From Thermodesulfobacteriota bacterium (lineage in GTDB: Bacteria > Desulfobacterota > Desulfobulbia > Desulfobulbales > JBFMBH01): a DNA stretch of 64,000 nucleotides. Each line of letters begins with the position of its first letter. Within the stretch, counting starts at the first letter, position 1. The notes beneath the pieces are model-generated. The model did no database searches and was not told the origin of the DNA. It saw only the letters and a list, made by a program, of their open reading frames with translations. The position numbers and the translations under genes were made by a program. The stretch lies in the NCBI GenBank assembly GCA_040755095.1, contig JBFMBH010000003.1, forward strand, positions 20,143-84,142. Reading direction: 5' to 3'. Shown piece by piece: positions 3,578 through 38,385 of this stretch.

Positions 3578-5152
3578 TTACGGCCGCTTAGCCGCCCCTT
3601 TGGGGCAGCTGACCCGTCCGAGGTCCCGCTGGTGGTCGAAATCCGCATCCCGGTCCGGGGTGTGGCAGCTCTGGCAGATGATGGCCGCCGGTCGCCGCTC
3701 TGGCCGGCTGCCGGCGGGGGCGGTGGCGTGCGCCCGGCCGGGGCCGTGGCAGGCCTCACAGCCCACCGGCTGCAGATCAGCGGCCAGGCTGAGGAGGGCC
3801 TGGTCATCCGGCCCGGCGGCATAGGTGACGTGGCACGGCAGGCAGTCCAGGTTGCGGTCCTGTCCTTTGGCCTTCAGGGTTTCGAAGGCCTGGGCGTGCC
3901 GGGTGGCACGCCAGAAGCTGGTCTGGGCCGGGTGGCAGTCTGCACAGCGTTTCCAGCCCGCGTGGTCCTCGGGCTGGGCCGCCAGAAGCTGCAGCAGGGC
4001 CTGCAGCTCGGCGGGGGTGCCCTCGCCGCCGGCAGCGGGCAGCTGGGCTGAAAGCAGCTGCGCCAGATCGACGCCGCCGGCGCCAAAGGGCGAGGCCGCC
4101 GCGCCCGGCCCGGCTGGGGGGCCGGCCGGCGGCGGCGCCGGTGCCGGGGCTGGCGGGGCCTGCGCCGCAGCGGCATTGGCCGCGGCCACCTTGACCTTGA
4201 GGTCTTCAACGATGGCCAAGACCTCCGGGTCGTCCGGTCCCTGCTTCTCCAGGGCGGTCACCCCGTGCTGCCAGGAGCCCTCGCCAGGCGCCGCCGGCCC
4301 CGGCGCCCCGGCTCGCCAGGCCTTGGCCTTGGCCGGCCAGCTCACCGTGAGCTGGCCCAGGTACTTGCCCCGGGGGGCGACCCGGGTCAGGAGGGCGCTG
4401 CCCAGGGGCTGCGGCGCCCCGGCCGCTGCCGGCTGGCCAGCCTGGACGATCAGCCGGATCTCGGGCACGGCCGCGGCCAACGCCTCCAGCTCGGTTGCCG
4501 CCAGGTCGGTGAGCAGGATCAGGAAGTCGTTCCGGCTGGCCAGCTCCTTGGCCAGGGGCGGCAGGACTTGCCGCCAGGGCCGGATCTCCACCCCCTCTCC
4601 CCCCACCAGGGCGCCGGTCACCGGTGCGGTCAGGCCGATCACCGCCACCCGGCAGCCCCCCACCTTCTTCTCCCGGCTGGCCGGGAACACCGGCTTGCCG
4701 CTGGCCCGGCGCACCAGGGAGGCGGACAGCCACGGCAGGGGGATCCGCTTGGCCAGGGCCTCCAGGAAATCGACCCCGGCGGCCAGGTCGTTTCTCGCCA
4801 CGGCCACGGCATCGAAGGCCATGCGGCGGTAGGCCTCCGCAATCCCCTCCGCGGTGACCGTCTCCTGGGCCCGGCGGTTGGCGGCCACGGCCGGACCCTT
4901 GAACAGCAGCCCGCCGGCATCCACGGTCAGGGTCTCGATGCCGGCCTCGCGGCGCAGCCGGGCAAGCTGATACGCCTTTTTGGACAGACCGCCCAATTGT
5001 GCGGACTTTCAGCCGCAGGGCTCGGTCTCGCCGTTGACGTCGTTGGCGTAGAAGACCGCGAAGTCGGCTGCCAGGGTGTGGGCCGGCAGGCCGGCCACCA
5101 GGAGGAGCAGCGCGAACGAGCATGCAGGCCACGTCAAGAAAGAGGGTCTCAT
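3578..5152 (-). CDS. exported 5'-nucleotidase/metallophosphoesterase-like protein fused to a tetrahaem cytochrome c domain; contains an in-frame TGA (5011..5009) read here as candidate selenocysteine
   Basis: ORFs 5009..5215 and 3578..4996 share one frame and are separated by one TGA. Signal peptide MRPSFLTWPACSFALLLLVAGLPAHTLA from ATG 5152. Four CXXCH motifs (CADCH, CLPCH, CEACH, CQSCH) at the C-terminus. The downstream part has no ATG or signal peptide of its own. Confidence 0.6.
4980..4996 (-). promoter_or_regulatory. SECIS-like hairpin 3' of the in-frame UGA
   Basis: The mRNA can form 5'-UUGGGC[GGUCU]GUCCAA-3', a 6-bp stem including one G.U pair. It starts 13 nt after the UGA, and the loop G-U falls at +23/+24 from the U of UGA. 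Confidence 0.4.
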
Positions 5153-5183
5153 CGAGGTCGTCCTGCCAGGGGTTGAGGGTGGA

Positions 5184-6521
5184 TCAGCTGCGCCGCTCCG
5201 GCCCCGGGCGGCCACCGGTCGACCGGCGTGCCAGAAGGGCCCGCCACTTGGTCAGGCGCTCCCGGATCACCGCCTCGTGGCCCCGGTTGGTGGGCTCGTA
5301 CCAGTGCTCGGCGGGGAGGCCTTCCGGCAGGTGGGCCTGGGGCACCAGAGCGTCCGGGGCATCGTGGGCGTACTGGTACCCGGCGCCGTAGCCCAGGTCC
5401 GCCATGAGCCGGGTAGGGGCGTTGCGCAGATGTAAAGGTACCGGCAGACTGCCGGTCTTGTCGAGCACCGCTCGCACCCGGCCCAACGCCCGGTAGACGG
5501 CGTTGCTCTTGGGGGCGGTGGCGAGATACACGGCGCACTGGGCCAGGGCCAGCTCGCCTTCCGGGCTGCCCAGCATCTGGAAGGCCTCCCGGGCGGCCAC
5601 TGCCAGCATCAGGGCCTGGGGCTCGGCGTTGCCCACGTCCTCGGAGGCGAAGCGGATGAGCCGGCGGGCGATGAACAAGGGATCCTCGCCTGCCGCCAGC
5701 ATCCGGGCCAGCCAGTACAGGCCGGCATCCGGATCGGAGTCCCGCAAGGACTTGTGCAGGGCCGAGATGAGGTTGTAATGCTCCTCGCCGGCCCGGTCGT
5801 ACCGGAAGCCCTTTCTCTGACTCGCCTCTTCCACCAGAGCCGGGGTGATGGTGCGGCCGCCGTCGGCATCCGGCTCGGCCAGGGCCACGGCCACCTCCAG
5901 GGTGTTGAGCAGCCGGCGGCCGTCACCGTCGGCCAACCGCAAAAGGTGCGCGCGGCCGTCCCCGGCAAAGCGCACCAGCTCCTGCCCAAGGCCATGCTCC
6001 CGGTCCTGGAGGGCTCGGGTGAGCAGCCGGTCGAGATCCGTTTCCGCCAGCGGGGAGAGGACCAGCACCCGGCTCCGGGAGAGCAGGGGGGCGATGACAT
6101 GGAAGGACGGGTTCTCGGTGGTGGCGCCGATGAGGGTGAGGAGGCCACTCTCCACGTGGGGGAGGAAGGCGTCCTGCTGGGCCTTGTTGAAGCGGTGGAT
6201 CTCATCCACGAAGAGGACGGTGCGTACCCCTTCTTGCTGGCGCTTTTCGGCTGCGGCCACGAGCTGCCGGATCTCTTTGACCCCGGCCAGGACCGCCGAG
6301 AAGGCGACAAAGGCGGCGTCCACGTGCTGGGCCAGAAGCAGGGCCAGGGTGGTCTTGCCGCAGCCGGGGGGGCCCCAGAGGAGGAGAGAAGGGAGCTGGC
6401 GGGAGGTGACGAGCCGGCCCAGGATGCGGTTCGGGCCCAGGAGATGCTCCTGGCCGACGAGATCGGCCAGGTCCCGCGGCCGCATGCGCTCGGCCAGGGA
6501 CGCCGCGGGCAGGCCGGGCAT
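5184..6521 (-). CDS. rarA: replication-associated recombination protein A (AAA+ ATPase)
   Basis: LLWGPPGCGKTTLA Walker A, LFVDEIHRFNKAQQD, and a C-terminal MgsA domain (HYNLISALHKSLRDSDPDAGLYWLARML). Confidence 0.95.
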   Translation of the reverse strand: MPGLPAASLAERMRPRDLADLVGQEHLLGPNRILGRLVTSRQLPSLLLWGPPGCGKTTLALLLAQHVDAAFVAFSAVLAGVKEIRQLVAAAEKRQQEGVRTVLFVDEIHRFNKAQQDAFLPHVESGLLTLIGATTENPSFHVIAPLLSRSRVLVLSPLAETDLDRLLTRALQDREHGLGQELVRFAGDGRAHLLRLADGDGRRLLNTLEVAVALAEPDADGGRTITPALVEEASQRKGFRYDRAGEEHYNLISALHKSLRDSDPDAGLYWLARMLAAGEDPLFIARRLIRFASEDVGNAEPQALMLAVAAREAFQMLGSPEGELALAQCAVYLATAPKSNAVYRALGRVRAVLDKTGSLPVPLHLRNAPTRLMADLGYGAGYQYAHDAPDALVPQAHLPEGLPAEHWYEPTNRGHEAVIRERLTKWRALLARRSTGGRPGPERRS

Positions 6522-6525
6522 GGGG

Positions 6526-7848
6526 CTAGCGTGCCACCATGGCCCGCATCATATCGGCGGAGTTCTCGGCATGGTTGGCGATCTTGCCGATGATGTCAAC
6601 GGTGGTCAGCTGGTGGTGCAAAAGAATCGGCTCGGTAACCGTCTTGAAGACCAGGTGCTTGAGGCTCATTTCCATGGCATCGGCCTCATGCTCCACCGTG
6701 CGGATGGCGGAGATGATCTCCTTGACCCGTTTGCGCTCCACTTCGTCGCTGCTCCGGAAGAAGTCCCGGCCGGTCCGGATCATCTCGGGCAGCATCTGCA
6801 CCGCCTCGATGCATTTCGCCAGCAGGGCATGCACACCTTTGGTCAGCTCCGGGGTGAAGCCCTTGTCCACCAGAGACAGCCAGTCCACCAGGGTCTGAGC
6901 GTCGTCAGCAATCCGGTCCTGCTCCTTGACGTAGGCAAAGAGCTCGAACTTGTCGATGGGCATGATGATGCCCTTGGGCAGGTGGCCGCGGACGTTGCGC
7001 TTGACCGCGTCCGCCTCGTGCTCCTTCTGGTTGACCTGGGCGGCCAGCTGGTTGAACCGGGGCATCTCGCCGGCGGTGTACTGCGCGAGGGCCTGGCCGG
7101 CCAGGCTTACGCACTGGAGCACAATGCGGGCATGCTTTTCCAGGGCCTCCAGGGGGGCACGGGTGACCACGGGCTCGGGCAGCTGCTCCAGCCGCTGGTG
7201 GCGGATCTGCTGGCCGGCCACCAGGTAGACCACGTCCTCGGCGATGTTGGTAGCCTGGTCGGCGATCCGCTCCAGGTTGAGGGCCACCACCGTGGCGTGG
7301 ACCGCGGCGGTGATCACCTCCGGCTTGGCCTGCATGGCTTGCAGGAGCTGGGCCTGGATCGCCTCGCACAGGGCATCCGCATCCTCATCCAGCTGCCGCA
7401 CGGATTTGGCCAGGGCGGTGTCCTGGCTGACAAAGCTGTTGATCGCCTTTTCCATCATGTTGCGGGCCGTGGCGGCAAAACGCTGGAAGGCCTCCAGCTC
7501 CAGGGGCTGGCGATGGCCTGCGGCAACGATGCGCCGGGTCCGTTTGCAGATGTTCACGGCCCGGTCACCGACCCGTTCCAGCTCGTGGGCGATAGACAGG
7601 GCCGAAGTGATGAAGCGCAGGTCGGCCCCCATGGGCTGCTGCAGGGCCAGGATCTTGATGGCCTGGTCCCGGATCTCGATCTCCAGCATGTCGACCTGAT
7701 CGTCCTGGGCCCGTACCCGCTCAGCCAGTGTGTCGTCCAGCTTGGTGAAGGCGATCATCGCGGTCTGCAACGACTCCTCCACCAGGGACGACATCTTGAG
7801 AATACTGGTGTTGAGCTCGGTGATCCACTGTTGCGTGCGGGTAGCCAT
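6526..7848 (-). CDS. PhoU-domain protein fused to a DUF47 (PhoU-like, TIGR00153-type) domain
   Basis: The N-terminal half carries two PhoU repeats (DDQVDMLEIEIRDQ...ELERVGDRAVNI; EDADALCEAI...NLERIADQATNIAEDV). The C-terminal half has DUF47-like KEHEADAVKRNV and VEHEADAMEMSL helices. Start chosen at MATRTQQW (ATG 7848). Confidence 0.8.
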   Translation of the reverse strand: MATRTQQWITELNTSILKMSSLVEESLQTAMIAFTKLDDTLAERVRAQDDQVDMLEIEIRDQAIKILALQQPMGADLRFITSALSIAHELERVGDRAVNICKRTRRIVAAGHRQPLELEAFQRFAATARNMMEKAINSFVSQDTALAKSVRQLDEDADALCEAIQAQLLQAMQAKPEVITAAVHATVVALNLERIADQATNIAEDVVYLVAGQQIRHQRLEQLPEPVVTRAPLEALEKHARIVLQCVSLAGQALAQYTAGEMPRFNQLAAQVNQKEHEADAVKRNVRGHLPKGIIMPIDKFELFAYVKEQDRIADDAQTLVDWLSLVDKGFTPELTKGVHALLAKCIEAVQMLPEMIRTGRDFFRSSDEVERKRVKEIISAIRTVEHEADAMEMSLKHLVFKTVTEPILLHHQLTTVDIIGKIANHAENSADMMRAMVAR

Positions 7849-8015
7849 GGCAGTCCGAATGGTCGCAGAGACGCTGGGGGCGGAAAGAGTCGCGCAGCCC
7901 GCCGGCATGAGGCCGCGGGTACGCTCATTCAATACCGAATGGATGGAGGTTGGCAAGCAAATCTTGGCCGCCGTCTTCCCGGAAGGCGGCGGCCGATCGG
8001 AGCTTTCCCGCGGCG

Positions 8016-9372
8016 TTACGAAAGCTCCGGCAGCCTGGCCAGGGCCTCGCGGATCTTGTCTTCGGGATAGGCGTAGTCCACGAGCTTGCCGGCCAGATAA
8101 TCCGCGTAGGCAGCCAGATCCAGGTAGCCGTGGCCGCTCAGGTTGAAGAGGATGACCCGCTCTTTGCCCTCCTCCCTGGCCTTGAGTGCCTCATCTACCG
8201 CGGCCCGGATGGCGTGCGAGCTTTCCGGAGCAGGGATGATCCCCTCTGCCTTGGCAAACAGCACCGCGGCCTCGAAACAGGCGGTCTGGCCGTAGGCCTT
8301 CGCTTCGATGAGCCCGTCGTGCACCAGCTGGCTCACCAGGGGCGAGTCACCGTGGTAGCGCAGGCCGCCGGCGTGGATGCCGGGAGGCATGAAGTCGTGG
8401 CCCAGGGTGTACATGCTCAGGAGCGGGGTTAGGCCGACCACGTCGCCAAAGTCATAGCGGAACTGCCCCCTGGTCAAGGTCGGGCAGGAGGCGGGCTCCA
8501 CAGCCATCACCCGGACCAGCTTGCCGGCGATGCGGTCGGCGATGAAGGGAAAGGCAAGACCAGCCAAGTTGCTGCCGCCACCACAGCAGCCGATGACCAC
8601 GTCCGGATAGTCCCCGGCAATGGCCAGCTGCTTTTTGGCCTCCAGGCCGATGATGGTCTGATGCATGCACACATGGTTGAGCACCGAGCCCAGGGCGTAG
8701 TTGGTGTCGTCGTGGGTGGCGGCATCCTCCACCGCCTCCGAGATGGCGATGCCCAGGCTGCCCGGGCTATCGGGGTCCTTGGCCAGGATCTGACGGCCAG
8801 CGTTGGTCTGATCCGAGGGGCTGGGATGGACGGTGCCGCCCCAGGTCTCCATGGCGATGCGGCGATACGGCTTCTGGTCGTAGCTGACCCGTACCATGTA
8901 GACGGTGACGGTCAGTCCGAACATCTGACCGGCCAAGGACATGGCGGAGCCCCATTGGCCGGCGCCTGTCTCGGTGGCGATGCGGCGGATCCCCGCCTGC
9001 TGGTTGTAGTAGGCCTGGGGAATGGAGGTGTTGGGCTTGTGGCTGCCGGCCGGGCTCACCCCCTCATACTTGTAGTAGATCCGGGCCGGGGTGCCCAGAG
9101 CGGCCTCCAGGCTGCGGGCGCGGTGCAAGGGCGATGGCCGCCACAGGGCGTACTTCTCCAGAACCGGCTCCGGGATGTCGATCCAGCGCTGGGAGGAGAC
9201 CTCCTGCTCGATGAGGGCCATGGGGAAGATCGGGGTCAGATCCTGCGGGCCGCAGGGCTTTTGGGTGGCCGGATGCAGGGGGGGCTTGGGCAGGTTGGGC
9301 ATGTCCGCCATGACGTTGTACCACTGTCTGGGGATCTCCTCCTCCGGTAACACGATCTTCATCCGGCTCATG
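8016..9372 (-). CDS. TrpB-like PLP-dependent enzyme (tryptophan synthase beta-chain family, TrpB2 type)
   Basis: PAGSHKPNT (PLP lysine region), [11 protein letters not shown] and a long TrpB2-type N-terminus. Start MSRMKIV at 9372, preceded by an AGGAGA Shine-Dalgarno sequence. Confidence 0.9.
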
Positions 9373-9596
9373 GCATATCTCCTGCTCCGATAGGGTGTCT
9401 GGCCATAGGCGGCGTCGCCCGCGGTGTCAAGCCCAAGCACTTTACCAACCGCCTGTGGTCGCTGCAACGCGGAAAAAACGCGACCCGGGGCAGGAAGGGA
9501 TCGACAGGCAGGGCCGGCCTCGGCCAGAATGGGCTGGCGGTCGGGGCGGTCGGCCCAGAAGACGTCCAATCCCGAATTTTGGAAGGAGGAGCGAGC

Positions 9597-9917
9597 ATGC
9601 ACGAGGCGACCCTGCGCAAGTGGCACCGGACGCTGGGCATTGGCCTGGCCATTTTTGTGATCGTGCAGGCAGGAAGCGGTGCCCTTCTGTCTGCCGAGCA
9701 GCTCTTGGGCGGGCATGGGGATCATGTCGAGCCGGCTGCCGGCGAGCTGCCGCAGGAGATGGAGGTGGAGGTCACGGAGGGGCTGCACTACGGCGGCGGC
9801 CCGGTTGGCGCCGCCTATCGCCTGCTCCTGGGCCTCGGTCTGACCGGCATGGCGGGCTCGGGCAGTGTCATCTATTGGCAAGCCCGGGGCAGGCTGCGTC
9901 GGGCCCGCCGTCCATAA
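9597..9917 (+). CDS. small membrane protein, PepSY-associated-TM-helix-like
   Basis: GGAGGAG Shine-Dalgarno sequence 6 nt before ATG 9597. [26 protein letters not shown] and a C-terminal TM ([19 protein letters not shown]). Confidence 0.45.
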
Positions 9918-11066: not shown

Positions 11067-11570
11067 ATGAGGCGGTGGCAGAAACTGGTGCTCCAAGCAA
11101 GCCGGGGCCGGTGGCTCCGGCTGCTGGCCCTGGCGCTCTTTCTGGTCCCCTGGCCGGCGCAGGCGTCGGACCTGGCGGGCTGGGAGAAGGACAGCCCATA
11201 CCAGCGCCTGTACAAGCCGGCAGAGGTGGACAAGATCAAGGTCACCGTCGTGCGGCGGCAGGAGGTGGTGCCGATACCGGGCATGGCACCAGGGCTTGCC
11301 CTGGTGGTCACGGAAGGAGGGGAAGCCACCTTCCTGGTGCACCTGGGGCCCAAGTCCTATCTCGACCGGCAGCCCCTGGCAGTGGCGCCGGGCGACACGG
11401 TCAAGATCCGTGGCGTCTGGGCGGAGATCGGCGGCCAGGAGGTCTTCATGGCGGCCAAGATCAAGAAGGACGACGGCTACCAGTACAAGCTGCGGCTGAC
11501 CAGCGATGGCCGGCCTTTCTGGTCCCTCAGTCCGGAAGAGCGGGCCCGGGAGGCCGCAGCCGCCGACTGA
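11067..11570 (+). CDS. secreted hypothetical protein
   Basis: AAAGGAGGGA Shine-Dalgarno sequence. Signal peptide LRLLALALFLVPWPAQA. The beta-rich body (TFLVHLGPKSYLDRQPLAVAPGDTVKIRG) was not assigned to a family. Confidence 0.5.
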   Translation: MRRWQKLVLQASRGRWLRLLALALFLVPWPAQASDLAGWEKDSPYQRLYKPAEVDKIKVTVVRRQEVVPIPGMAPGLALVVTEGGEATFLVHLGPKSYLDRQPLAVAPGDTVKIRGVWAEIGGQEVFMAAKIKKDDGYQYKLRLTSDGRPFWSLSPEERAREAAAAD

Positions 11571-11622
11571 CCTGCCGGCCAAGCCGGCGCAAGACCCCAA
11601 CTCCCTTTCCAAGGCCATCCCC

Positions 11623-12513
11623 ATGCTGGTTCGTGACATCCTTGCCCGGACGAAGATCGCCTTCAGCTACGAGTTCTTCCCGCCCAAGACGGACGCCCAG
11701 AGTGAGCAGCTGTTCCACGCCATCGCACAGCTCATGCCCTTGCAGCCGTCCTACGTCAGCGTCACCTACGGGGCCGGCGGCTCCACCCGGGATCGCACCC
11801 ATCAGCTGGTCGTCCGGCTGCAGACCGAGACCGACCTCACCGTGGTCTCGCATCTGACCTGTGTCGGCTCCACCCAGGACGAGATCGCCCAGATCCTGGA
11901 GCGGTATGCGGTCCACGGGATCGAGAACATTCTGGCCTTGCGGGGCGATCCGCCTCGGGGGCAGAGCGGCTGGACGCCCGCCGGCAACGGCTTTCCCCAT
12001 GCCTGCGACCTGGTGCGCTTCATCAAGGAGCGTTTTCCCCAGATGGGGGTAGGGGTGGCCGGCTTCCCGGAAGGGCATCCGGAGACCCCCAACCGGCTGC
12101 AGGAAATCGAATTCCTGAAGGCCAAGGTGGACGCCGGCGCCGACTACATCGTCTCCCAGCTGTTCTTCGACAACCGGGATTTCTACGACTTCTGCGAGCG
12201 TTGTGAGCTGGCCGGCATCCGGGTGCCGGTTCTGGCCGGCATCATGCCCATCACCACCCGGCACGGCATGGTGCGCATTGCCGAGCTGGCGGCCGGCGCC
12301 CGCCTGCCAGCCCGGCTGCTCAAGTCGGTGGCCCGGGCCGAGAGCGACGAGTACGTGGAGAAGGTGGGCGTGCATTGGGCCACCGAGCAGGTCCGGGATC
12401 TCGTCTACCATGGGGTCCGGGGCATCCACTTCTACACCCTCAACGCCTCCCGGGGGACCCTCAAGATCTATGAGTCCCTGGGGGTCCGGGATTCGGCGCA
12501 GCTCCTGGCCTAG
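11623..12513 (+). CDS. metF: methylenetetrahydrofolate reductase
   Basis: FSYEFFPPKT, VTYGAGGSTR, HLTC, GFPEGHPE and DYIVSQLFFD motifs. Confidence 0.9.
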   Translation: MLVRDILARTKIAFSYEFFPPKTDAQSEQLFHAIAQLMPLQPSYVSVTYGAGGSTRDRTHQLVVRLQTETDLTVVSHLTCVGSTQDEIAQILERYAVHGIENILALRGDPPRGQSGWTPAGNGFPHACDLVRFIKERFPQMGVGVAGFPEGHPETPNRLQEIEFLKAKVDAGADYIVSQLFFDNRDFYDFCERCELAGIRVPVLAGIMPITTRHGMVRIAELAAGARLPARLLKSVARAESDEYVEKVGVHWATEQVRDLVYHGVRGIHFYTLNASRGTLKIYESLGVRDSAQLLA

Positions 12514-12522
12514 GGCAGGACC

Positions 12523-14013
12523 ATGCCTCGTCCTCCTGTGGTGGAAAGGCTTGACACCCTCACCGCCGAATTGACCGATCTTTACGGCATCGAGGCCCTC
12601 CTGCAGTGGGATCAGGAGGTGGGGCTCCCTGCCCGGGCGGTGCATGATCGGGCCCAGCAGCTGGCCACGATGCGCACCGTCATCCACCGGCGGGAGACGG
12701 ATCCGGAGCTGCGGCGGCTGGTGGAGGAGGCCCAGGGCCTGGATGATCTTCCGGACGCGGACCGGGGCCTGGTGCGGCTGGTGGGCCGCCTGGTCCGCCA
12801 GGCCAGCCTGCTGCCCGAGGACTTCGTGGCCGAGCTGGCCCGCACGACCTCGGCGGCCTTCGCCGTCTGGGTGGAGGCCCGGCAGCGGGCCGATTTTGCC
12901 CATTTTGCCCCCCACCTGGCGACAATCGTGGCGCTGTGCCGCCAGAAGGCCGAGCTCCTGGGCTTTCCGGAGCATCCCTACGACGCCCTCCTGGACCTCC
13001 ACGAGGAAGGGTTGACCACCCGGGCGGTGACCGAGCTTTTCGCCGGCCTGGGCCCGCGCCTGGCCGCCATGCTGGCCCGTGCGGCCAACCAGCCCCGGAC
13101 CAGGCTTGCCCTGTCGCCCCCCTTCACGGTGCCCCTGCAGGAGGCCTTTGCCGAGCGGCTTCTGGCCCGCATCGGCTTCGATTTCCAGCGGGGCCGGCAA
13201 GACCGCTCCGCCCATCCGTTTTCCACCACCATCGGCCACCACGACCGCCGGGTCACCAACCGTTACCGCCCCGACTCCATCGAGTTCGTGCTCAGCGCCC
13301 TCCATGAAGGGGGACATGCCCTCTACGAGCAGGGCATCAGCGATGCGCTGGCCCGCTCGCCCCTGGACCAGGGGGTCTCCCTGGGCATCCACGAGTCCCA
13401 GTCCCGGTTGTGGGAGAACATCATCGGTCGCAGCCGGCCATTCTGGGAGGGCCTGTTCCCGGACCTGGTCGCCTTCTTCGCCCCCCGCTTCGACGGTCTG
13501 GACCTGGAAACCTTCCTTGCCGCCATCAACGCCGTGGCGCCCGGCCCGATCCGGGTGGAGGCCGACGAGGTCAGCTACAATCTGCACATCCTGGTGCGGT
13601 TTGAGCTGGAAAAGGCGCTGGTGGAAGGGAGTCTGGCGGTGGCCGACCTGCCGGCGGTCTGGAACGAGCGCTACCGGCAGCTCCTGGGCGTGGCGGTGGA
13701 CGATGACGCCCAGGGCGTTCTCCAGGACGTGCACTGGTCCCACGGCAGCTTCGGCTATTTCCCCACCTACACCCTGGGCAATCTCGCCGCGGCCCAGTTC
13801 TGGCAAGCCTACCAGGAGGTCGATCCCGACCCGAATGCCACCCTCAGGCAGGGGCAGCTGGGACGGATCCGGGAATGGCTGGCGGCGGCCATCCACCGCC
13901 ACGGGGCGATCTATCCCCCGGATGAGCTCCTGCGGCGGGTCACCGGCCAGCCCCTCACCACCGGGCCGTTCCTGGGGTACCTGGCCGGCAAGTACCCGGA
14001 TCTTGTGCCCTGA
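12523..14013 (+). CDS. carboxypeptidase Taq-like metallopeptidase (M32)
   Basis: HEGGHALYEQG zinc motif, plus the family-typical IHESQSRLWEN, DVHWSHGSFGYFPTYTLG and IRVEADEVSYNLHI. Confidence 0.9.
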   Translation: MPRPPVVERLDTLTAELTDLYGIEALLQWDQEVGLPARAVHDRAQQLATMRTVIHRRETDPELRRLVEEAQGLDDLPDADRGLVRLVGRLVRQASLLPEDFVAELARTTSAAFAVWVEARQRADFAHFAPHLATIVALCRQKAELLGFPEHPYDALLDLHEEGLTTRAVTELFAGLGPRLAAMLARAANQPRTRLALSPPFTVPLQEAFAERLLARIGFDFQRGRQDRSAHPFSTTIGHHDRRVTNRYRPDSIEFVLSALHEGGHALYEQGISDALARSPLDQGVSLGIHESQSRLWENIIGRSRPFWEGLFPDLVAFFAPRFDGLDLETFLAAINAVAPGPIRVEADEVSYNLHILVRFELEKALVEGSLAVADLPAVWNERYRQLLGVAVDDDAQGVLQDVHWSHGSFGYFPTYTLGNLAAAQFWQAYQEVDPDPNATLRQGQLGRIREWLAAAIHRHGAIYPPDELLRRVTGQPLTTGPFLGYLAGKYPDLVP

Positions 14014-14034
14014 ATTCCGGTCCGTTGCCTTCCT

Positions 14035-14745
14035 ATGGATCTTCTGGCCGCCGAGTCCCGCTCCCTGCCGGCGATCTTCTCCCTGTCTTTCCTGGTGGCC
14101 CTGACCGGCGCCATGGCCCCAGGGCCGCTTCTGACCTACACCATCGTCCGCGCGATTGGCAGCCACCACGGCTATCTCATGGGGCTGTGGATCGTCCTTG
14201 GCCATGCCGCACTGGAGCTGGCCCTGATTGCCGGTCTTCTGTGGGGGCTCGCCCTGTTCCTGGCCCAGGCAGCGGTGGTGCGGGCCATTGGGGTGGCGGG
14301 CGGTTTCGTCCTGATCCTGTTTGGGGCTGGGCTGTTGCGGGATGTGGCGGCGGGCCGCATCGCCACCGATCTCGCGGCCGTGGAAGAGGGAGGCGCCACG
14401 GCAGGCCGTTGGGGCAGGGCCAACCCTGTTCTGGGCGGGGCGGTAATCTCCATGGCCAACCCGTACTGGTGGGTGTGGTGGGCCAGCATCGGCGCCGCCT
14501 TCATGAGCCAGTTCGGGGTCTCCTTTGACAGCTGGCCCACCCTCGCCGTCTTCTTCCTGGGGCACGAGGCCGGCGATCTCGCCTGGTACCTGGTGGTCTC
14601 GGCCGGGGCTTTCTGGGGCCGGCAGCGGCTGAGCCGGCGGGCCTACCACGCCGTCCTGGTCTGCTGCGGCCTGTTCATGATCGGCTTCGGGCTCTACCTC
14701 GGCGTGGTCCCATTCCTGGCCGGGCCGGTCACGGCGGCCGGCTGA
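14035..14745 (+). CDS. LysE/RhtB family amino-acid exporter
   Basis: About 6 TM segments. N-terminal LTGAMAPGPLLTYTI is typical of the LysE family. Confidence 0.8.
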   Translation: MDLLAAESRSLPAIFSLSFLVALTGAMAPGPLLTYTIVRAIGSHHGYLMGLWIVLGHAALELALIAGLLWGLALFLAQAAVVRAIGVAGGFVLILFGAGLLRDVAAGRIATDLAAVEEGGATAGRWGRANPVLGGAVISMANPYWWVWWASIGAAFMSQFGVSFDSWPTLAVFFLGHEAGDLAWYLVVSAGAFWGRQRLSRRAYHAVLVCCGLFMIGFGLYLGVVPFLAGPVTAAG

Positions 14746-14765: not shown

Positions 14766-15074
14766 TCAGGCCGGCAGCCGGATGCGCTCTTCGGGATCAC
14801 GATCCGGATTGGCTCGGTACAGAAGGATGGTGCGGCCCAGGACCTGGGCGACGCCGGCCGCACACCGCTGGGCCAGTTCGTCGGCCAGCGGCCGGCGGCC
14901 GGCGCTGCACCCCGCCTGCACCCTGATCTTGATCAGCTCGTGCGCGGTCAGGTTGGCCTCGATGGCGGCGAGCACCGCCGGGGTCAGGCCCTGGGTGCCG
15001 ATCATCACCGCCGGCTGCAGATGGTGGCCCAGGGCCCGCAGATGGCGAGCCTGTCTGCCAGTCAAGGTTGTCAT
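14766..15074 (-). CDS. yhbY: YhbY-like CRM-domain RNA-binding protein
   Basis: LTGRQARHLRALGHHLQPAVMIGTQGLT...ELIKIRV. AAGGAGGAGGAAG Shine-Dalgarno sequence before ATG 15074. Confidence 0.8.
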   Translation of the reverse strand: MTTLTGRQARHLRALGHHLQPAVMIGTQGLTPAVLAAIEANLTAHELIKIRVQAGCSAGRRPLADELAQRCAAGVAQVLGRTILLYRANPDRDPEERIRLPA

Positions 15075-15104
15075 GGTCTTCCTCCTCCTTCGTAGGCTGC
15101 CGCC

Positions 15105-16085
15105 ATGCCCCGCGAGATCACTCACTGGCTGATCGCCCAGGCGGCGGCCAACCGCCTGGCTGACACCCCTTTGGGCGAGGCCGCCGGTCGCTGTCCCGAC
15201 CTCCTGGTCCTGGGCGCCCTGGCCCACGACGCCCTTCTCTTTCCCCACTGCCTGCCGGGTGGCCGGAGCTTCCGTTTCCTGGCCCACCGCCTGCACGGGC
15301 TGGCGGGAGAGGATACGTATCCCGTCCTCCGGGCGGCTGTTGCTGCTGCCGCCGTGGCCGGCCATGACCGGCCGGGACTGCTCGCCTTCCTCGCTGGCCT
15401 TGCCTCCCATGTAGCGGCCGACGCCGTCTTCCATCCGCTGGTCTTCTATCTGACCGGGGACTACCATGCCCCGGATCGGCGGCTGCGGGCTCTGGCTGCC
15501 CAGCGGCACCATCGCCTGGAGGGCCTGCTGGATCTCGTTCTCATCGGCGGCCCAGCCCAGGCCAGGCATTACCGGCTCCTGGCCTGCTGGCAGCGCCAGC
15601 GCCGCCGGCTGGGCGACCTCCTTGCCACCATCCTCCGGCACCTGGACCCGCAGCTGCCGCCCGAGCCGGCTGCGGCCGCCATGGTGGCCGGTCTGGGCTG
15701 CTTTGGCCTGGTGCACGCCGTGTGCGTCCGCCCCTTGCCGGCCCGGCTCCTGCACGGGCTCTGCCCGCGGGCGCCCCTGCCCCTGCGGGACGGGCTGTCC
15801 CTGGCCTACGCCCCCCAGCTGTGGGCCGGACGGGGGCTTTGGCAGGGGTCGCTCTCCTTCTGCCACCCGGTGACCGGCGAGCCCGGGCAGGTCGAGACCC
15901 GGGAGCTGGTGGCCGAGGCGGTCCGGCGCAGTGAGCTTCTGGGGCGCCGTCTTGCCCAAGCCATGACGGGCGGCGCCAGCGACCCGCTGCCGGAGCAGGG
16001 CCCGTCCCTGGAGACGGGGCTGGCCGGCGTGCCCCGGCAGGCCATGCGCTTCTTCGGCGGCCGCCGCCTGCCGGCGCTGGGCTAG
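15105..16085 (+). CDS. hypothetical protein, possibly zinc-dependent phospholipase C-like
   Basis: N-terminal THWLIA, GALAHD and HVAADAVFHP resemble the PLC/P1-nuclease-type metal-ligand pattern. The family call is tentative. Confidence 0.4.
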   Translation: MPREITHWLIAQAAANRLADTPLGEAAGRCPDLLVLGALAHDALLFPHCLPGGRSFRFLAHRLHGLAGEDTYPVLRAAVAAAAVAGHDRPGLLAFLAGLASHVAADAVFHPLVFYLTGDYHAPDRRLRALAAQRHHRLEGLLDLVLIGGPAQARHYRLLACWQRQRRRLGDLLATILRHLDPQLPPEPAAAAMVAGLGCFGLVHAVCVRPLPARLLHGLCPRAPLPLRDGLSLAYAPQLWAGRGLWQGSLSFCHPVTGEPGQVETRELVAEAVRRSELLGRRLAQAMTGGASDPLPEQGPSLETGLAGVPRQAMRFFGGRRLPALG

Positions 16086-16383
16086 CTCGGCGGCGCCCCC
16101 CCCAACAACGGGGCGGCACGGCATGCATACCGGATCTGCGGGCAGCAGTGCAAAGGGAAAATCCGGCCGGCGCGGACCAGGGCGCAGCGTGCACCGGCGT
16201 TTAGACCAAAATACGGAATGCGCTTATGGAAAAATGAACGTGCAACAAGTATAGTGACGGCCAACCCATAGCAGCGCCGTCCCGTGACCGCAGGGGCAGT
16301 TGGCGTGGCGGCAGGGAAATCGACCTAAACGGCCCGTTCATCAAAGCTGGTCCACAAAATTGACGTCAACCGGGGAGGATAAC

Positions 16384-27402: not shown

Positions 27403-28882
27403 GCAGGAGGCGACCCCGATCATCGGCATCGATCTGGGCACCACCAACAGCCTGGTGGCGGTGCCCAGCCGCCAGGGGCCGGTGATCGTCGCCAATGAGC
27501 GGGGTGAGCGCATGACGCCGTCGGTGGTGGCGGTGCACCCCGGTCAGGTCCTGGTGGGGGAGCTGGCTCGCTCCCAGGCGGTACTCAACCACGCGGTCAC
27601 CGTCACCCTGGCCAAGCGCGCCATGGGCAGCCGGCAGATCTGGCGGCTCCAGGATGAGGACTGGACGCCGGAGCGGGTCTCGGCCGCCATTCTGACCTCC
27701 CTGCGCCGCACCGCCGAGGACTATCTCGGCGTACCGGTGCGCGAGGCGGTGATCACCGTGCCGGCCTATTTCAACGACCGGCAGCGGCAGGCCACCTTGC
27801 AAGCCGGCGAGGCGGCAGGCCTTACGGTGGTGAAGCTCATGAACGAGCCCACCGCCGCGGCCCTGATGTATGGCCTGGAGCACGGTGCGGATGACCGGCT
27901 TCTGGTCTTCGACCTGGGCGGTGGCACCCTGGACATCACCCTGATCGAGATCCGGGAACACGCCTTCGTCGTCCGCCAGGTGGGCGGGGCCACCGACCTG
28001 GGGGGCAGCGACTTCGACGCCCTGCTGGTGGAGGAGCTGCGCGAGGTCTTCCGGCAGGAGCATGGCCTCGATCTGGCTGCCGATCCGGTGGCTCGCCAGC
28101 AACTGGTCCTGCAGGCGGAGCGGGCGAAGCGGGATCTGTCCTCCGCGCTGGAGGCCCGGGTGATGATCCCCTACGTGACCATCACTCCCGCGGGCCCGCT
28201 GCACCTCGATCTGCCCCTGACCCGGGCCCGGGCCGAGCTGCTGTTCACCCCGCTGCTGGACCGGATACGCGCCATCCTCGCCGAAACCCTGGCTGCCGCC
28301 GGGGTGGCCGCCGGCTGGGTCAACACCGTGATCATGGTGGGCGGGGCCAGCCGGATGCCCTGCGTGCGCCGGCTGCTGACCGAGCTCCTGCCGCCTGCGG
28401 TGACGGTGCGCCAGGACCTCAATCCCGAGGAGATCGTCGCCCTGGGGGCCGGACTTCTGGCCGGGGTGCTGGCTGGCACCTACCCGGAGATCCCTTTCCG
28501 GGACGTCACCGCCCATGATCTGGGCATCGAGGACGATGCCGGCGAGCTGGTGACCCTGATCCCCCGAGGCACCGCCTACCCGGTGGAGCGGCTGCGGGTC
28601 TTCACCACCACCCGCGACCACGAGACCGCGGTCACCATCCATGTCCTGGAGCGGGGCGAGCCCGGTGCCGAGCCGGTCACCCTGGCCTGGTTCGGCCTGG
28701 AGAGCCTGCCGCCCGCCCAGGCCGGCACCCTGGACATCGGTGTCACCTTTGCGATCGACGGGCACGGCATCCTGCGGGTGCGGGCCGTGGAGGAGACAAG
28801 CGGCGTCCGGGCCGAGATCCAGGTCAGCCGCTACGGAGCAGGACGAGCGTACGAGGAGCGCGAGATGATGCAGGAGGCGTGA
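27386..28882 (+). CDS. Hsp70-family ATPase lacking the C-terminal helical lid
   Basis: [30 protein letters not shown] and MVGGASRMP, plus a beta-sandwich segment, ending at 498 aa. The start may instead be ATG 27395, which has an AGAGGA Shine-Dalgarno sequence. Confidence 0.85.
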
Positions 28883-31197
28883 AGGCCGGGTGCACCCAGA
28901 AGGGGCAGCCTTTTCATCACAGAAGATGCGATCCGCAAGAGGGAGGGATGACAGCGATGGCGAGGAAGCTTGCACGGCCGGCAGGAAGGACAGGCATTCG
29001 GGTCAAGGCGGAGGGGGACGACATGCTGGTGAAGAAGGAGCACCAGGACAAGCGGGTGGCCCAGGAGAAGGTGCGGGCCCGCACCCTGGCCAAGCAGCAG
29101 GCCAATGCCGAGCGTCTGGCCGCCGCCTCGGAGGAGCTGTCGGCGGCCATCGAGGAGTCCAACGCCGCGTCGGCGCAGCTCAATGATCTCATGGGCGGGG
29201 TCGCGGCGGCGGCGGAGAAGATGAACCAGATCGCCACCCATCTCCAGGAGGCGGCCCAGACCACCAGCCGGTCGGTGGGGGAGGTGCGGACGATCACCGA
29301 GCAGTACGACGCCAAGAACGAGGATGTGGACAAGAAGACGGTGGACACCACCCGGGCCATCTCCGAGCTGGCCGGCTCGGTGGACGCCACCACCAAGCGG
29401 GTGCTGGACTCCGCCACGGTCATCAACCAGCTCAAGACCAAGGCGGAGAACATCAGCGGCATCGTCCAGGTGGTGACCCGGATTGCCGACCAGACCAATC
29501 TTCTGGCCCTGAACGCGGCCATCGAGGCGGCCCGGGCCGGGGATCACGGCAAGGGCTTTGCCGTGGTGGCCGACGAGGTGCGGACCCTGGCCGAGGTTTC
29601 GGAGAGCTCGGCCCACAAGATCAAGGATGTCATTGACGACGCCCTCAATCAGGTGGCCCGGGTGGTCTCTTCGGTCTCGGCCTTCGAGAGCATCTCGGCC
29701 ACCAACAAGCGCAAGACCGGGGTGATCGCCGGCGCCTGCAACAACATCCGCCACCAGTCCTCCCAGATCACGGCCGCGGTGCGTCAGATCAAGCAGATTT
29801 CCATCCAGGTCGCGGAGCGGGCCGATCAGACCTGCGGCAATGTCAGCACCATGGTGGGCGCCGCGGAGCAGATCGCCGCCTCCTGCGACCAGATCCGCCA
29901 GAGCACCAGCGAGCAGGTGAAGGCCTTCTCCGAGGCGTCGGCGGCCGCCAACGATCTGGCCACCATGGCCGATGACCTCAAGAGCTCGGTGGACATCAGC
30001 AAGTCCGCCGAGGAGGTGGCCGCCGCCGCCGAGGAGCTGGCCGCCACCGTGGAGGAGATGGACAACTCCGCCGATGAGATCGAGCGGGCCATCAGCGAGG
30101 TGGCCAAGGGCTCCCGGTCCATGGCCGACACCCTGGGCGAGGTGAGCGGCCTGGCCAACACCACCCTCGCTGATCTGGCGGCAGGGGATGCCATCTGGGA
30201 GGAGATCGCCGGCAAGGGGCGGGGCATCCAGCAGGAGCTGGAGCACATCAAATGTCTCGACCATCTCCTTTATATCGAGGCCCTGGAGAAGGCCATCACC
30301 GACAACACCCCCTTCAAGGGCCAGCTCGATCCCCACAAGTGCGCCTTTGGCTGCTGGTACGACCATTACCAGCCGGAGGACGGGGAGGAGCAGCTGGCCT
30401 ACGACGAGATCCGGGAGCATCATGACGCCGTGCACCACGGCGCCCGGGATGTGGTCCGGGCCATGGCCGACGGCCGTCTGGACGAATGCCGCGCCATCCT
30501 CGACTCGAAGATCCGGCCGGCGGTGGAGCAGTTCCGCCGCATCTTCGAGCGCTTCCACCACGGCATCGAGATGGTCACCGATGGCATCAAGAACACCATC
30601 AAGAACAACCAGGCGATCATGGAGGAGATGGCGGTCCTGGACAAGGAGTTCTCCAAGGTCAACAAGATCGTGGACACCATCACCAACGTCGCCATCCAGA
30701 CCAACATGCTGGCGGTGAACGGCCATATCGAGGCGGCCCGGGCCGGGGAGTTCGGCCGCGGCTTCTCGGTGGTGGCCGGCGACATCCGCTCCCTGGCCAA
30801 CGAGAGTGCGGACAACGCCGAGAAGATGCGGGAGATCCTGGACGATGTCCGGGACCAGATCGCCCTGGCCAAGGGGGACATCGCCAACATCAGCACCATG
30901 ATCCAGGTGCAGATCGAGCGGGCCAACGTGGCGGTGGAGGCCCTGGTGGAGATCTCCCGGCTGATCCGGGAAACCCGGGCCAGCCAGGGCTTGGCCCTCG
31001 TCCGCATGAAGGATGCCCACGCCGCGGCGGACAGCACCAACCGCCTGGTGGAGGACAGCGCCCAGGCGGTGGAGGTGCTGGTGCAAAACAGCGAGCAGTC
31101 CGGCCATGCGGCAGCCGAGCAGATCAAAGGCATCAAGGAGATTGCGCTCACCGCCGAGGACGTGGCCAGCCTGGCCGACGAGATGCAAAACGCCTAA
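28879..31197 (+). CDS. soluble methyl-accepting chemotaxis protein with two signalling-tip motifs flanking a CZB zinc-binding domain
   Basis: No TM segment. Tip 1 is [38 protein letters not shown]. The CZB-like domain reads DHLLYIE...[11 protein letters not shown]...HHDAVHH. Tip 2 is [37 protein letters not shown]. Start is uncertain: GTG 28879 (GTGA overlap), ATG 28948 or ATG 28957. Confidence 0.85.
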
Positions 31198-31222
31198 AGG
31201 GTCGACCGCTTGAGGTGCCGAT

Positions 31223-32842
31223 ATGGCTGAGACCAGCGTGCAAGCTGCCGGCGCGGGCGAATCCCAGCTCGTCTGTTTCCGGCTGGCGGAAGAGGAGTTC
31301 GGGGTGGACATCACCCAGGTCCGGGAGATCGTGCGGCTTCCGGCCATCACCCACATCCCCCTCACGCCGGACTATGTCCGGGGGGTGGCCAACCTGCGGG
31401 GCGCGGTGCTGCCGGTCATCGACTGCCGCCGCCGTTTCGGCTTGCCGGTGATGCCGGCCACGGAGCGGACCCGGGTTCTGGTCCTGGACGTGTCCGGGAT
31501 GATCGCCGGCATGGTGGTGGACGGGGTAAGTGAGGTGATGCGGGTCCCGCAGGGCGCCGTGGACCCGCCGCCGCCGGCCACCCAGGGCGGTATCACCGGC
31601 GACTTCCTGGCCGGGGTCATCAAACTGGACACCGGCCGCCGGCTGGTGCTCCTGATCCGGCCCGAAGAGGTGCTGGCTGTGGAGGCCGGTACCGCGGAGG
31701 GGACGGCCAGCCGCCCGGCGGCCCTGGCCCATGGCAGCGGCCGGCCGGCGGCGGCCACCGCCAAGGTGGCGGAGCGGCAGCTGGTCTCTTTTGCCGTCGC
31801 CGACGAGGAGTATGCCTTTGACATCGGGGTGGTGAAGGAGATCCTGCGCCACGGGGAGATCACCGCCCTGCCCGGGGCGCCGCCGGCGGTCCGGGGCCTG
31901 GTGACAGTCCGGGAGCAGCTCCTGCCGATCCTGGACCTGCGGATCCTCCTGGGCCTGGCTCCGGCGGACGGGGACGAGCAGCGGATCCTGGTGGTGGAGG
32001 GCGATGGCCCATCCATGGGCCTCATGGTGGACCGGGTGAAAGAGGTCCTGCGGGTGCCCTTGGACGAGATCCAGGCCGTGGACGATCTGGCCATGCGCAC
32101 CAGCGAGCTGGACGCCGTGGCCCGCCTCGACGACGGCCGCCGTCTCATCCTCATCCTCGATGTCAACCGGCTGGCGGGCATCGAGGCAGTCGGCGAGCTG
32201 ATGGAGGACACGGCGCCGGCCGCCGGGGAGACCGCAGGCCCCACCAGAGGGGCGGATCTGTCCGAGGAGCAGCTGGTCACCTTCGTGGTGGGTGGCGAGG
32301 AGTACGGCATCCGCATCACCCAGATCCGGGAGATCAACCGCCTGGGTCAGGTGACCCGGCTGCCCAAGGCGCCCGCCTTTCTGGCCGGGGTCACCAACCT
32401 CCGGGGGCAGGTCATCCCGCTCATCGACCTGCGGACCTGGTTCGATCTCGCGGACCGCAGCGTCAGCGACCGGACCCGGATCATCATTGTGGACCTGGAC
32501 GGCCAGCGCACGGGCTTCATCGTCGACCAGGTCAACGAGGTGCTGCGCATCCCCGGCGCCCAGATCGAGGCGACGCCGGCCCTCCTGGAGACCCGGGTGG
32601 ACCGGGAGCAGCGAGCCTTCATCACCGGCATCGGCAAGCTCGATGCCGGCAAGCGCATGGTCCTCATCCTGGATGTCAGCCGCATGCTGACCGCCGGCGA
32701 GCAGCAGGCCCTGGCAGCCCTGTCCGCGGCCAGCAGCGCGGCGCCGGCCTCCCCGATGACCGCCAAGCCGAAGCCGGCCCGCAAAAGCGGCGCCAAGAAG
32801 ACCAGGGCCAGGGCCGAGGACGCCATGGCCATCGACGACTGA
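31223..32842 (+). CDS. triple CheW-domain scaffold protein
   Basis: Three CheW modules: QLVCFRLAEEEFGVDITQVREIV, QLVSFAVADEEYAFDIGVVKEIL and QLVTFVVGGEEYGIRITQIREIN. A Ser/Ala/Lys-rich tail follows. Confidence 0.85.
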   Translation: MAETSVQAAGAGESQLVCFRLAEEEFGVDITQVREIVRLPAITHIPLTPDYVRGVANLRGAVLPVIDCRRRFGLPVMPATERTRVLVLDVSGMIAGMVVDGVSEVMRVPQGAVDPPPPATQGGITGDFLAGVIKLDTGRRLVLLIRPEEVLAVEAGTAEGTASRPAALAHGSGRPAAATAKVAERQLVSFAVADEEYAFDIGVVKEILRHGEITALPGAPPAVRGLVTVREQLLPILDLRILLGLAPADGDEQRILVVEGDGPSMGLMVDRVKEVLRVPLDEIQAVDDLAMRTSELDAVARLDDGRRLILILDVNRLAGIEAVGELMEDTAPAAGETAGPTRGADLSEEQLVTFVVGGEEYGIRITQIREINRLGQVTRLPKAPAFLAGVTNLRGQVIPLIDLRTWFDLADRSVSDRTRIIIVDLDGQRTGFIVDQVNEVLRIPGAQIEATPALLETRVDREQRAFITGIGKLDAGKRMVLILDVSRMLTAGEQQALAALSAASSAAPASPMTAKPKPARKSGAKKTRARAEDAMAIDD

Positions 32843-32968
32843 CCGCAGCAGCCCTGGTCGCTCCACAGGTCTTCCAGGTCCCACAGGTCGTCCCAGGGGC
32901 CGCATGAGGCCGGAACGCCGGGACCGAACGGGCCTGCAGCCTTTGCGACACACCCTGAGGAGACAAAC

Positions 32969-34063: not shown

Positions 34064-34098
34064 TGCTGGACCCGGCTCTGGCATGCGCCTGACCAGTT

Positions 34099-34938
34099 AT
34101 GCGACTCGATCTGGCGGATTTCCTCAAGATCCGGGACCTGATCCATGCCCAGACCGGGATCGCCTTTGACGAGAACAAGCTCCTCTTCGTCAAAAAGCGG
34201 CTGCAGATCCGCATGGAGGCCTGTCGCACGGAGACCGCCCTGGAGTATCTGCGCCTGCTCAAGTTCGGCGATCCCCGGGGGGAGGAGCTGCAGGCCTTCA
34301 TCAACCTGCTCACGACCAACGAGACGTATTTCTTCCGGGAGTTCAATCAGCTGGTGGTGTTCGCCGAGCAGTGCCTGCCGGAGCTGGCCGCCCGGCGGGC
34401 CTCCATGAAGAACCGCCGCCTGCGGCTGTGGTCGGCGGGCTGCTCCACCGGCGAGGAGCCATACACCCTGGCCATCATCCTGCGGGAGATGCTGGAGGAG
34501 CCGGACAGCTGGCTGCTCGATGTCCTGGCCACGGACATCGACACCCGGGTGCTGAACACCGCCCGCAAGGGCCTCTATGACCGGCGGGCGGTGAAGGAGA
34601 TGCCGCCGGAGTACCTGGACCAGTGGCTGACCCGCACCAGGACCGGCCAGTACCGGGTGCACCCGATCCTGCGCCACATGTGCCGTTTCGAGCACCTCAA
34701 TATGCACCAGGACAGCCAGATGGCCCGGGTGGTGAATGTGGACTTCATCTTCTGCCGCAACGTCCTGATCTACTTCGATGACCTGGCACGGCAGAAGGTG
34801 GTGGCCCACTTCTTCGAGAGCCTCAATCCGGGCGGCTACATCTTTCTGGGCCATTCGGAATCCATGAGCCGGATCTCCAACGCCTTCAGGGCGATCCGCC
34901 GGGGCGGCATGATTCTGTATCAGAAGCCCTGGCTCTAG
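34099..34938 (+). CDS. cheR: chemotaxis protein methyltransferase
   Basis: TTNETYFFRE, LRLWSAGCSTGEEPYTLAI and IFCRNVLIYFD. Confidence 0.92.
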   Translation: MRLDLADFLKIRDLIHAQTGIAFDENKLLFVKKRLQIRMEACRTETALEYLRLLKFGDPRGEELQAFINLLTTNETYFFREFNQLVVFAEQCLPELAARRASMKNRRLRLWSAGCSTGEEPYTLAIILREMLEEPDSWLLDVLATDIDTRVLNTARKGLYDRRAVKEMPPEYLDQWLTRTRTGQYRVHPILRHMCRFEHLNMHQDSQMARVVNVDFIFCRNVLIYFDDLARQKVVAHFFESLNPGGYIFLGHSESMSRISNAFRAIRRGGMILYQKPWL

Positions 34939-38381: not shown

Positions 38382-38385
38382 CGCC

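Follow-up and report, generated by a model that had tools for sequence, protein, structure and literature searches.

We analyzed a gene on the minus strand of a 64,000-nucleotide stretch (hereafter the window) of contig JBFMBH010000003.1 from a Thermodesulfobacteriota bacterium. This gene, at positions 3578..5152 of the window, is interrupted by an in-frame UGA at codon 48 that is very probably a genuine selenocysteine (Sec) codon, and its product would be a periplasmic selenoprotein of the UshA-like PCGU family. The first-pass annotation of the window, made from the sequence alone, had already favored genuine Sec recoding over a pseudogene. Its choice was upheld by the conservation of the UGA in relatives (with a single Cys variant), by the nucleotide-level constraint on the hairpin that follows the UGA and by the resemblance of the hairpin loop to that of Escherichia coli fdhF.

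An Open Reading Frame Interrupted by a Single UGA

On the minus strand, 524 sense codons run in one continuous frame from the ATG at 5152..5150 to the TAA at 3580..3578. The sole break in this frame is the TGA at 5011..5009 (codon 48), located directly 3' of ...NDVNGETEPCG, and in the list of open reading frames (ORFs) the gene appears as two same-frame pieces on the minus strand, 5009..5215 and 3578..4996. The frame and the coordinates proved to be exactly those with which the first-pass annotation had joined the two pieces into one 524-codon product. We found no further lesion in the frame, and the coding signature was intact on both sides of the UGA. Elsewhere in the window, TGA is an ordinary stop codon that terminates 13 of 24 genes, including rarA just upstream (5186..5184). 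The read-through product begins with MRPSFLTWPACSFALLLLVAGLPAHTLA, followed by ADF, which by inspection corresponds to a typical Sec-type export signal peptide, and continues after this signal as FAVFYANDVNGETEPCG-UGA-KSAQLGGLSKKAYQL. Comparable hydrophobic N-termini were present in the orthologues. The translation agreed with all the sequence-level statements made earlier, among them a signal peptide upstream and four CXXCH sites downstream of the UGA. The features of the 5' part of the gene are as follows:

3578..5152, minus strand: complete coding sequence of the probable UshA-like PCGU selenoprotein, comprising 524 codons and the TAA stop, codon 48 encoding Sec (translation, NF041198 match)
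5161..5164, minus strand: Shine-Dalgarno-like AGGA, 8 nucleotides 5' of the ATG (read off the sequence)
5069..5152, minus strand: predicted signal peptide, residues 1-28, ending AHTLA before AD (sequence features; cleavage site inferred)
5009..5017, minus strand: Cys46-Gly47-Sec48 (TGC GGC TGA), putative CxU redox motif, with the UGA at 5011..5009 (Cys and Gly invariant, UGA column conserved)
4980..4996, minus strand: predicted core hairpin of the selenocysteine insertion sequence (SECIS), spanning +16..+32 when the U of the UGA is +1, with the stem UUGGGC/GUCCAA and the loop GGUCU (G22 G23 U24 C25 U26) at 4990..4986 (comparative)

In the public protein collection, the entry for the protein of the window (P0001) begins only at TTG 4996 and is a fragment of 472 residues, and the entries of its homologues are called in the same way. 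These calls correspond to two separate genes, one for a 47-residue secreted peptide ending at the TGA and one for a cytoplasmic, or leaderless, 472-residue protein, an arrangement that we consider extremely improbable. Inspection of the sequence revealed no ribosome-binding site before TTG 4996, AGGA being found only before the ATG, in line with the earlier remark that the downstream piece has no Shine-Dalgarno sequence. The supposed start of the orthologues falls on a conserved Leu/Met column occupied by TTG, CTG, ATG, or GTG, and translation does not usually begin at CTG. Furthermore, the upstream piece provides the first beta-strand and motif I, aligning with 5'-nucleotidases across the UGA, and it is the only one of the two to have a signal peptide, which is needed since the attachment of c-type haems requires export. 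A protein search returned 30 relatives, and 12 of the 20 close ones were fetched. All of these 12, as well as P0001, start with (M/L)GGLSKKA, five codons past the UGA column, and the remaining matches in the group of close relatives had similar lengths. Such starts are a systematic truncation artefact of gene callers, and the miscalling of the fetched homologues just past the UGA likewise speaks for the interrupted reading frame. The region 3578..5152 should therefore be annotated as one 524-residue selenoprotein.

Conservation of the UGA Among Relatives

A query with the single protein of a collection holding one genome per species returned no confirmed relative, and an alignment-based query of the same collection then succeeded. 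It yielded 79 loci. The N-terminus is included in 78 of them, and adding the window brought the set to 79 sequences. Every record that names a lineage was assigned to Desulfobulbales, Desulfobulbia, or Thermodesulfobacteriota, and the named genera include Desulfocapsa, Desulfurivibrio, Desulfobulbus, Desulfoprunum, and Desulfobia; some of the locus titles give only Pseudomonadota, Proteobacteria, or "bacterium."

The column following PCG contained TGA in 78 of the 79 sequences, window included, and TGC (Cys) in the remaining one, so that the check on homologues proposed in the first-pass annotation returned Cys or Sec throughout. The lone TGC orthologue (L036:5986-6036) belongs to a metagenome-assembled genome of Desulfurivibrio sp. 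SURF_16. In this orthologue, neither the GGUCU loop nor the Ser codon nor the SKKA(Y/F)Q motif has been kept, and no SECIS-type hairpin was predicted for it; this loss of the loop, in one case only, is consistent with a relaxed constraint on the RNA. In two Desulfobulbus-type loci (L067:5986-6036 and L069:5986-6036), the motif is PCGG-TGA, with CxxU spacing and an unchanged SECIS core. The orthologues have an open and conserved frame before as well as after the UGA; the peptide upstream of it, (F/L)YSNDVxGExEPCG, can be aligned with the first strand and motif I of 5'-nucleotidases, and this alignment runs through the UGA without a break. The gene shows in this respect what is expected of a bacterial selenoprotein, an in-frame UGA kept in orthologues with Cys in one homologue.

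The TGA could also be a sequencing or assembly error, or a nonsense mutation that turned a former Cys gene into a pseudogene with no full-length protein; Sec machinery was indeed not found in our scans of the window, and the hairpin taken by itself is not significant (see below). The probability of this explanation is nevertheless minute, considering that the same TGA occurs in nearly all of these independent assemblies from different species, that no additional lesion accompanies it within an otherwise intact coding signature, that synonymous sites are conserved in a 14-nucleotide core downstream and that NCBI curates the family as a selenoprotein. The comparative data effectively refute the pseudogene, and for practical purposes we regard a pseudogene, a sequencing error and two separate genes as excluded on the basis of these alignments.

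The SECIS Hairpin

The sequence UUGGGC-GGUCU-GUCCAA, with its five-nucleotide loop in the middle, is the minimum-free-energy fold. The folding check proposed at first pass thus recovered the suggested hairpin, which alone was statistically unremarkable; its significance comes from the comparison with the related loci and not from the single sequence. In the 78 UGA sequences, positions +17..+30 (the U of the UGA being +1) were nearly invariant in nucleotides, synonymous sites included, and the flanks varied freely. At the third codon positions of the hairpin, we observed G at +18 (78/78), C at +21 (75/78), U at +24 (69/78), G at +27 (76/78), and C at +30 (77/78), with a third-position entropy of about 1.2-1.9 bits at most of the sites that lie before the UGA, between +6 and +15, or beyond +39. 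This fixation of synonymous sites indicates selection on the RNA and not on the protein. The helix 16-21/27-32 was paired in 92% of cells, compared to 28-62% when the 3' arm was slid by one to three columns, and RNAalifold retained the pairs 18-21/27-30. A lower SECIS helix pairing +4..+15 with +33..+45, considered by eye, was not supported by RNAalifold.

A divergent subgroup with GGLPRRA (L062:715-765, L064:255-305, L073:5986-6036, and L074:5986-6036) kept the GGUCU loop on different, stronger and G+C-rich stems (7 base pairs in L073 and 8 base pairs in L064, the two that were folded), which are allowed by the codon changes from Lys-Lys to Arg-Arg. The genome of the window has a G+C content of 68.7%, and the codons of the SECIS core are rare in it: in the window, TTG makes up 5.8% of the Leu codons, GGT makes up 8.3% of those for Gly, and AAA makes up 10.8% of those for Lys. 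The core is unchanged although no relative found shares more than 47% identity with the protein, which suggests that the element is under ongoing selection in the lineage of the window. Its maintenance is an indirect argument for Sec decoding by the organism.

The hairpin can be compared with the SECIS of E. coli fdhF, whose sequence TGACACGGCCCATCGGTTGCAGGTCTGCACC..., confirmed in 5419 of the 5426 E. coli genomes, reads GGUCUG at +22..+27. The loop of the window, GGUCU at +22..+26, is identical to it in letters and in distance from the UGA, and both hairpins begin 12-13 nucleotides after the UGA, the fdhF loop being preceded by A21. The G and U of the loop stand at +23 and +24 in the same register as in fdhF, as had been stated in the first reading of the sequence. 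The minimal SECIS of E. coli comprises nucleotides 15-31, with U17, G23, and U24 as conserved determinants, U17 and G23 making contact with SelB (PMC8659212). In the UshA-like PCGU family, U17 and G23 were invariant and U24 was present in 88% of the sequences. The two elements differ in their stems (UUGGGC/GUCCAA in the window versus GGUUGC/GCACC in fdhF) and in loop size (5 versus 6, or 4, nucleotides), and no extended lower helix is conserved. As in other bacterial SECIS elements, a stem-loop lies 3' of the UGA, with its apical loop about 20-25 nucleotides away and a conserved loop G/U.

Points Against Sec Insertion and Alternative Decoding of the UGA

Several observations weigh against Sec insertion. 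As for the RNA, the single-sequence fold was not significant (z = -0.66 for 71 nucleotides and z = -1.73 for 26 nucleotides), and U17, bulged in fdhF, is predicted to be paired in the window. Covariation was minimal because the stem hardly varies: changes on both sides affected only 2 pairs, with a score barely above that of shuffled alignments, and it is the conservation of synonymous sites that carries the RNA evidence. How well GGLSKKA is conserved in amino acids is partly a matter of ascertainment, one of our two search patterns having been [ML]GGLSKKA[YF], which leaves synonymous sites unbiased. The AlphaFold2 model covers residues 53-524, with the Sec loop outside of it. As for the Sec machinery, ARAGORN found no tRNA, and hence no tRNA-Sec, in the 64-kb window; NCBIfam scans of 30 of the ORFs in the window gave no selA, selB, or selD; and no Rfam family reached its gathering score across the window, with chance-level matches at E up to 10 near the UGA. 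Five other in-frame TGAs in the window had coding signal on both sides and none of them showed a recognizable Sec context; three lie at or beside called gene boundaries, and the two others are at 14011..14013 and 59821..59823 on the plus strand. Finally, the neighboring genes (rarA and a ppaC-like gene, both housekeeping) provided no functional hint.

The absence of Sec machinery from the window scans would also suit decoding of the UGA by other means, either near-cognate read-through (with Trp or Cys) or programmed read-through with the hairpin acting as a stimulator, and Sec insertion is deduced here from sequence data. We still judge such decoding to be very unlikely: the loop agrees in both sequence and register with the fdhF loop to which SelB binds, and U17 and G23 do not vary; Cys is the single sense-codon variant, forming a classic Sec/Cys pair; the UGA adjoins an invariant Cys in a CxU motif; and the family has been both curated and published as a selenoprotein. 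We thus retain Sec insertion at codon 48 and infer that the organism is able to decode Sec.

If so, translation would start at ATG 5152, and the hairpin at 4996..4980, 13 nucleotides past the UGA (5011..5009), would recruit the SelB-GTP-Sec-tRNA(Sec) complex. Sec would be inserted as residue 48, and translation would run on to the TAA at 3578 to give one 524-residue pre-protein. The latter would be exported through its Sec-type signal peptide, and four c-type haems would then be attached in the periplasm. The mature protein would combine a domain of 5'-nucleotidase/SoxB fold, with its dimetal site lost, and a cytochrome c554-like tetrahaem domain, the Cys-Gly-Sec pair being placed in the loop after the first beta-strand, right behind the remnant of motif I.

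A Divergent Member of an Already Catalogued Family

We compared the read-through protein with NCBIfam, writing X for the UGA. It matched, with an E-value of 2.1e-133 and 445.6 bits, well above the curated cut-off of 275 bits, the equivalog NF041198 ("UshA_like_PCGU, UshA-like (seleno)protein"), whose name is taken from the motif present in the window. Like the family, it has a PCG-U motif (EPCG-TGA in the window), an UshA-like N-terminal part and a C-terminal region with CXXCH sites, and its length is similar (524 amino acids for a model of 519 positions). A second family, NF049981 (UshA-like selenoprotein family 2, CxxU), matched residues 33-124, Sec region included, from a distance (E 4.4e-06). 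With 26 bits, this match is far under the cut-off of 140, and NF049981 differs from the protein of the window by its CxxU spacing and by its shorter model (262 positions). The two Desulfobulbus-type loci L067 and L069 share the PCGG-U spacing, yet otherwise resemble family 1.

The first-pass annotation implied that this architecture is absent from described selenoprotein families; it is in fact not new, being curated as NF041198 and present in the literature. An analysis, in 2008, of data from Global Ocean Sampling listed "UshA-like, COG0737, CxU" among the major selenoprotein families (PMC2398784), and two reviews of prokaryotic selenoproteomes also include an UshA-like CxU family (PMC9312934, PMC13188914). 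The later of the two connects the UshA-like family to NF041198, and the identity of the 2008 family with NF041198 rests on these reviews. PMC1976440 is silent on the UshA-like family, and the 2008 paper (PMC2398784) is the earliest listing that we could verify. The gene of the window is a member of the already catalogued UshA-like PCGU selenoprotein family. It is merely a divergent member, from a high-G+C genome, of a family known from bioinformatics. Most members of this family carry a helical insert of about 70 residues between the two domains, and the copy of the window has in its place a Pro/Ala/Gly-rich linker. At the level of the family, the points of use for a future characterization are the identity of the SECIS loop to that of fdhF in sequence and register, the degenerate metal site and the conserved synteny with rarA.

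A 5'-Nucleotidase/SoxB Fold With a Degenerate Metal Site

The N-terminal domain comprises the following features:

4253..5065, minus strand: N-terminal domain of 5'-nucleotidase/SoxB metallophosphatase fold, about residues 30-300 (PDB profile, AlphaFold2, Foldseek)
5044..5030, minus strand: degenerate metal-binding motif NDVNG (sequence)
4924..4910, minus strand: degenerate metal-binding motif VDAGG (sequence)
4798..4775, minus strand: degenerate metal-binding motif ARNDLAAG (sequence)

A profile built from 17 N-terminal domains spanning the Sec position matched 5'-nucleotidases (E 2e-21 to 1e-17) and SoxB (E 1e-12) in the PDB. In the AlphaFold2 model, the predicted local distance difference test (pLDDT) score exceeded 90 through most of the N-terminal domain and was 35-70 in the haem domain; the best matches of a Foldseek search with this model were SoxB, at 1.5e-13, and the UshA of E. 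coli, at about 1e-12. The read-through protein gave no match to Pfam Metallophos. The C-terminal substrate-binding domain of 5'-nucleotidases had no Pfam or NCBIfam match either, the linker and the haem domain being found there instead.

The protein shares with UshA-type 5'-nucleotidases and SoxB the fold, the predicted periplasmic location and the framework motifs "EP...GG(L/V)a+" and "LSAN." It differs from them by the loss of the metal-ligand motifs (DxH being replaced by D/N-x-(V/I/N)), by the haem domain standing in place of the C-terminal substrate domain and by the Cys-Gly-Sec after motif I. In comparison with 3ivd, 2z1a, and 5h7w, the metal ligands NDxH became ND(V/I/N...), GD became GN or GG, and GNHE became xxDL. 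The positions matching the HxG and GGHxH motifs are without His, except in the divergent subgroup, which keeps THxG. The first Asp of motif I is Asp in about 54% of the members and Asn in 45%. The fold is thus that of a catalytic metallophosphatase, whereas the dimetal ligand motifs and the C-terminal substrate domain are missing. This degeneracy across the family agrees with the suggestion, made at first from one motif of the window protein, that the phosphoesterase domain may be non-catalytic. In the alignment, Cys-Gly-Sec is part of the loop that leads from motif I to the first helix, and GGLSKKA aligns with GG(V/W)ar. By homology to UshA-type structures, this loop should be located near the former metal pocket.

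The Linker and the Tetrahaem Domain

Downstream of the N-terminal domain, we identified the following features:

3965..4183, minus strand: Pro/Ala/Gly-rich linker, residues 324-396 (73 residues), 64% Pro, Ala, or Gly (composition; pLDDT < 50)
3581..3964, minus strand: cytochrome c554-like tetrahaem domain with four CXXCH (Pfam PF13435, PDB profile)
3946..3932, minus strand: haem site CADCH (sequence)
3844..3830, minus strand: haem site CLPCH (sequence)
3760..3746, minus strand: haem site CEACH (sequence)
3676..3662, minus strand: haem site CQSCH (sequence)

The insert found between the domains in most homologues and absent from the window copy reads KKxELDG...EIxxL...STFxNxFIAL. The four CXXCH sites are at residues 403, 437, 465, and 493, and their Cys and His are invariant in 21 homologues. 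PF13435 was the only Pfam family recognized (residues 403-470, E 2.1e-14), its 54.7 bits exceeding the gathering threshold of 20.8 bits; this score and the four CXXCH sites together indicate a tetrahaem domain of the PF13435 type. In the PDB profile search, the C-terminal domain matched cytochrome c554 (1bvb, E 7.6e-16) and the multihaem protein 6i5b (E 1.1e-23). The likeness to the cytochrome c554 of Nitrosomonas (1bvb/1ft5) and to the related 6i5b concerns the PF13435 match and the four CXXCH with c554-like spacing, and is to be read together with the low confidence of the model in the haem domain. In contrast to cytochrome c554, the haem domain of the window is fused to a selenoprotein domain and has no link to hydroxylamine oxidation.

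Possible Function

We propose, with low confidence, that Cys46 and Sec48 may form a thiol/selenol redox centre in electron exchange with the haem chain; the protein would then be an oxidoreductase of the periplasm. The substrate could possibly be inorganic sulfur or another chalcogen species, an idea based on the SoxB-like fold, the CxU motif, the haem domain and the Desulfobulbia-centred distribution. Taken to its full extent, this line of thought would lead to an uncharacterized type of periplasmic enzyme, found here almost only in genomes of the Desulfobulbia type, in which a metal-free SoxB/5'-nucleotidase scaffold carries a Cys-Gly-Sec wired to four haems and acts on sulfur or chalcogen species (e.g., polysulfide, thiosulfate, or selenite). 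This picture is speculative and, in our opinion, rather unlikely to be right as a whole. If it were true, the PCGU enzyme would have a part in the way in which the Desulfobulbia group lives by sulfur disproportionation or sulfide oxidation.

Genomic Neighborhood and Other Observations in the Window

The gene is preceded on the same strand by rarA (5184..6521, minus strand). Beyond its 3' end, small unassigned ORFs on the opposite strand are followed by nadD and proA. Among the related loci, rarA was directly upstream in 53 of 79, and a DHH/PpaC-like gene was located downstream on the opposite strand in 44 of 79. The window thus keeps rarA and differs from the related loci by the presence of nadD and proA on the other side. 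The synteny with rarA and the DHH/PpaC-like gene is one of housekeeping neighbors and not a functional operon.

An uninterrupted ORF of 476 amino acids (6526..7956, minus strand) combines a full PhoU (residues 42-251) with a TIGR00153/DUF47-like half (residues 268-475), corresponding to a fusion or an unusual arrangement. In two long frames of the minus strand, the match is confined to the end: TrpB-like over residues 172-610 in 8016..9881, whose real start is probably far downstream of the ORF start, and YhbY over residues 387-475 in 14766..16223, whose mechanical start is probably far upstream of the real one. The ORF at 11527..14649 (minus strand, 1040 amino acids) had no NCBIfam match and an odd G+C content at first and third codon positions (GC1 0.87 and GC3 0.71, respectively), and is overlapped by a long frame on the plus strand. 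Finally, the region 28519..45266 (plus strand) contains a large chemotaxis/signalling cluster encoding a methyl-accepting chemotaxis protein (MCP), a triple-CheW protein, CheB, CheR, two CheA-like kinases, and hybrid histidine kinases.

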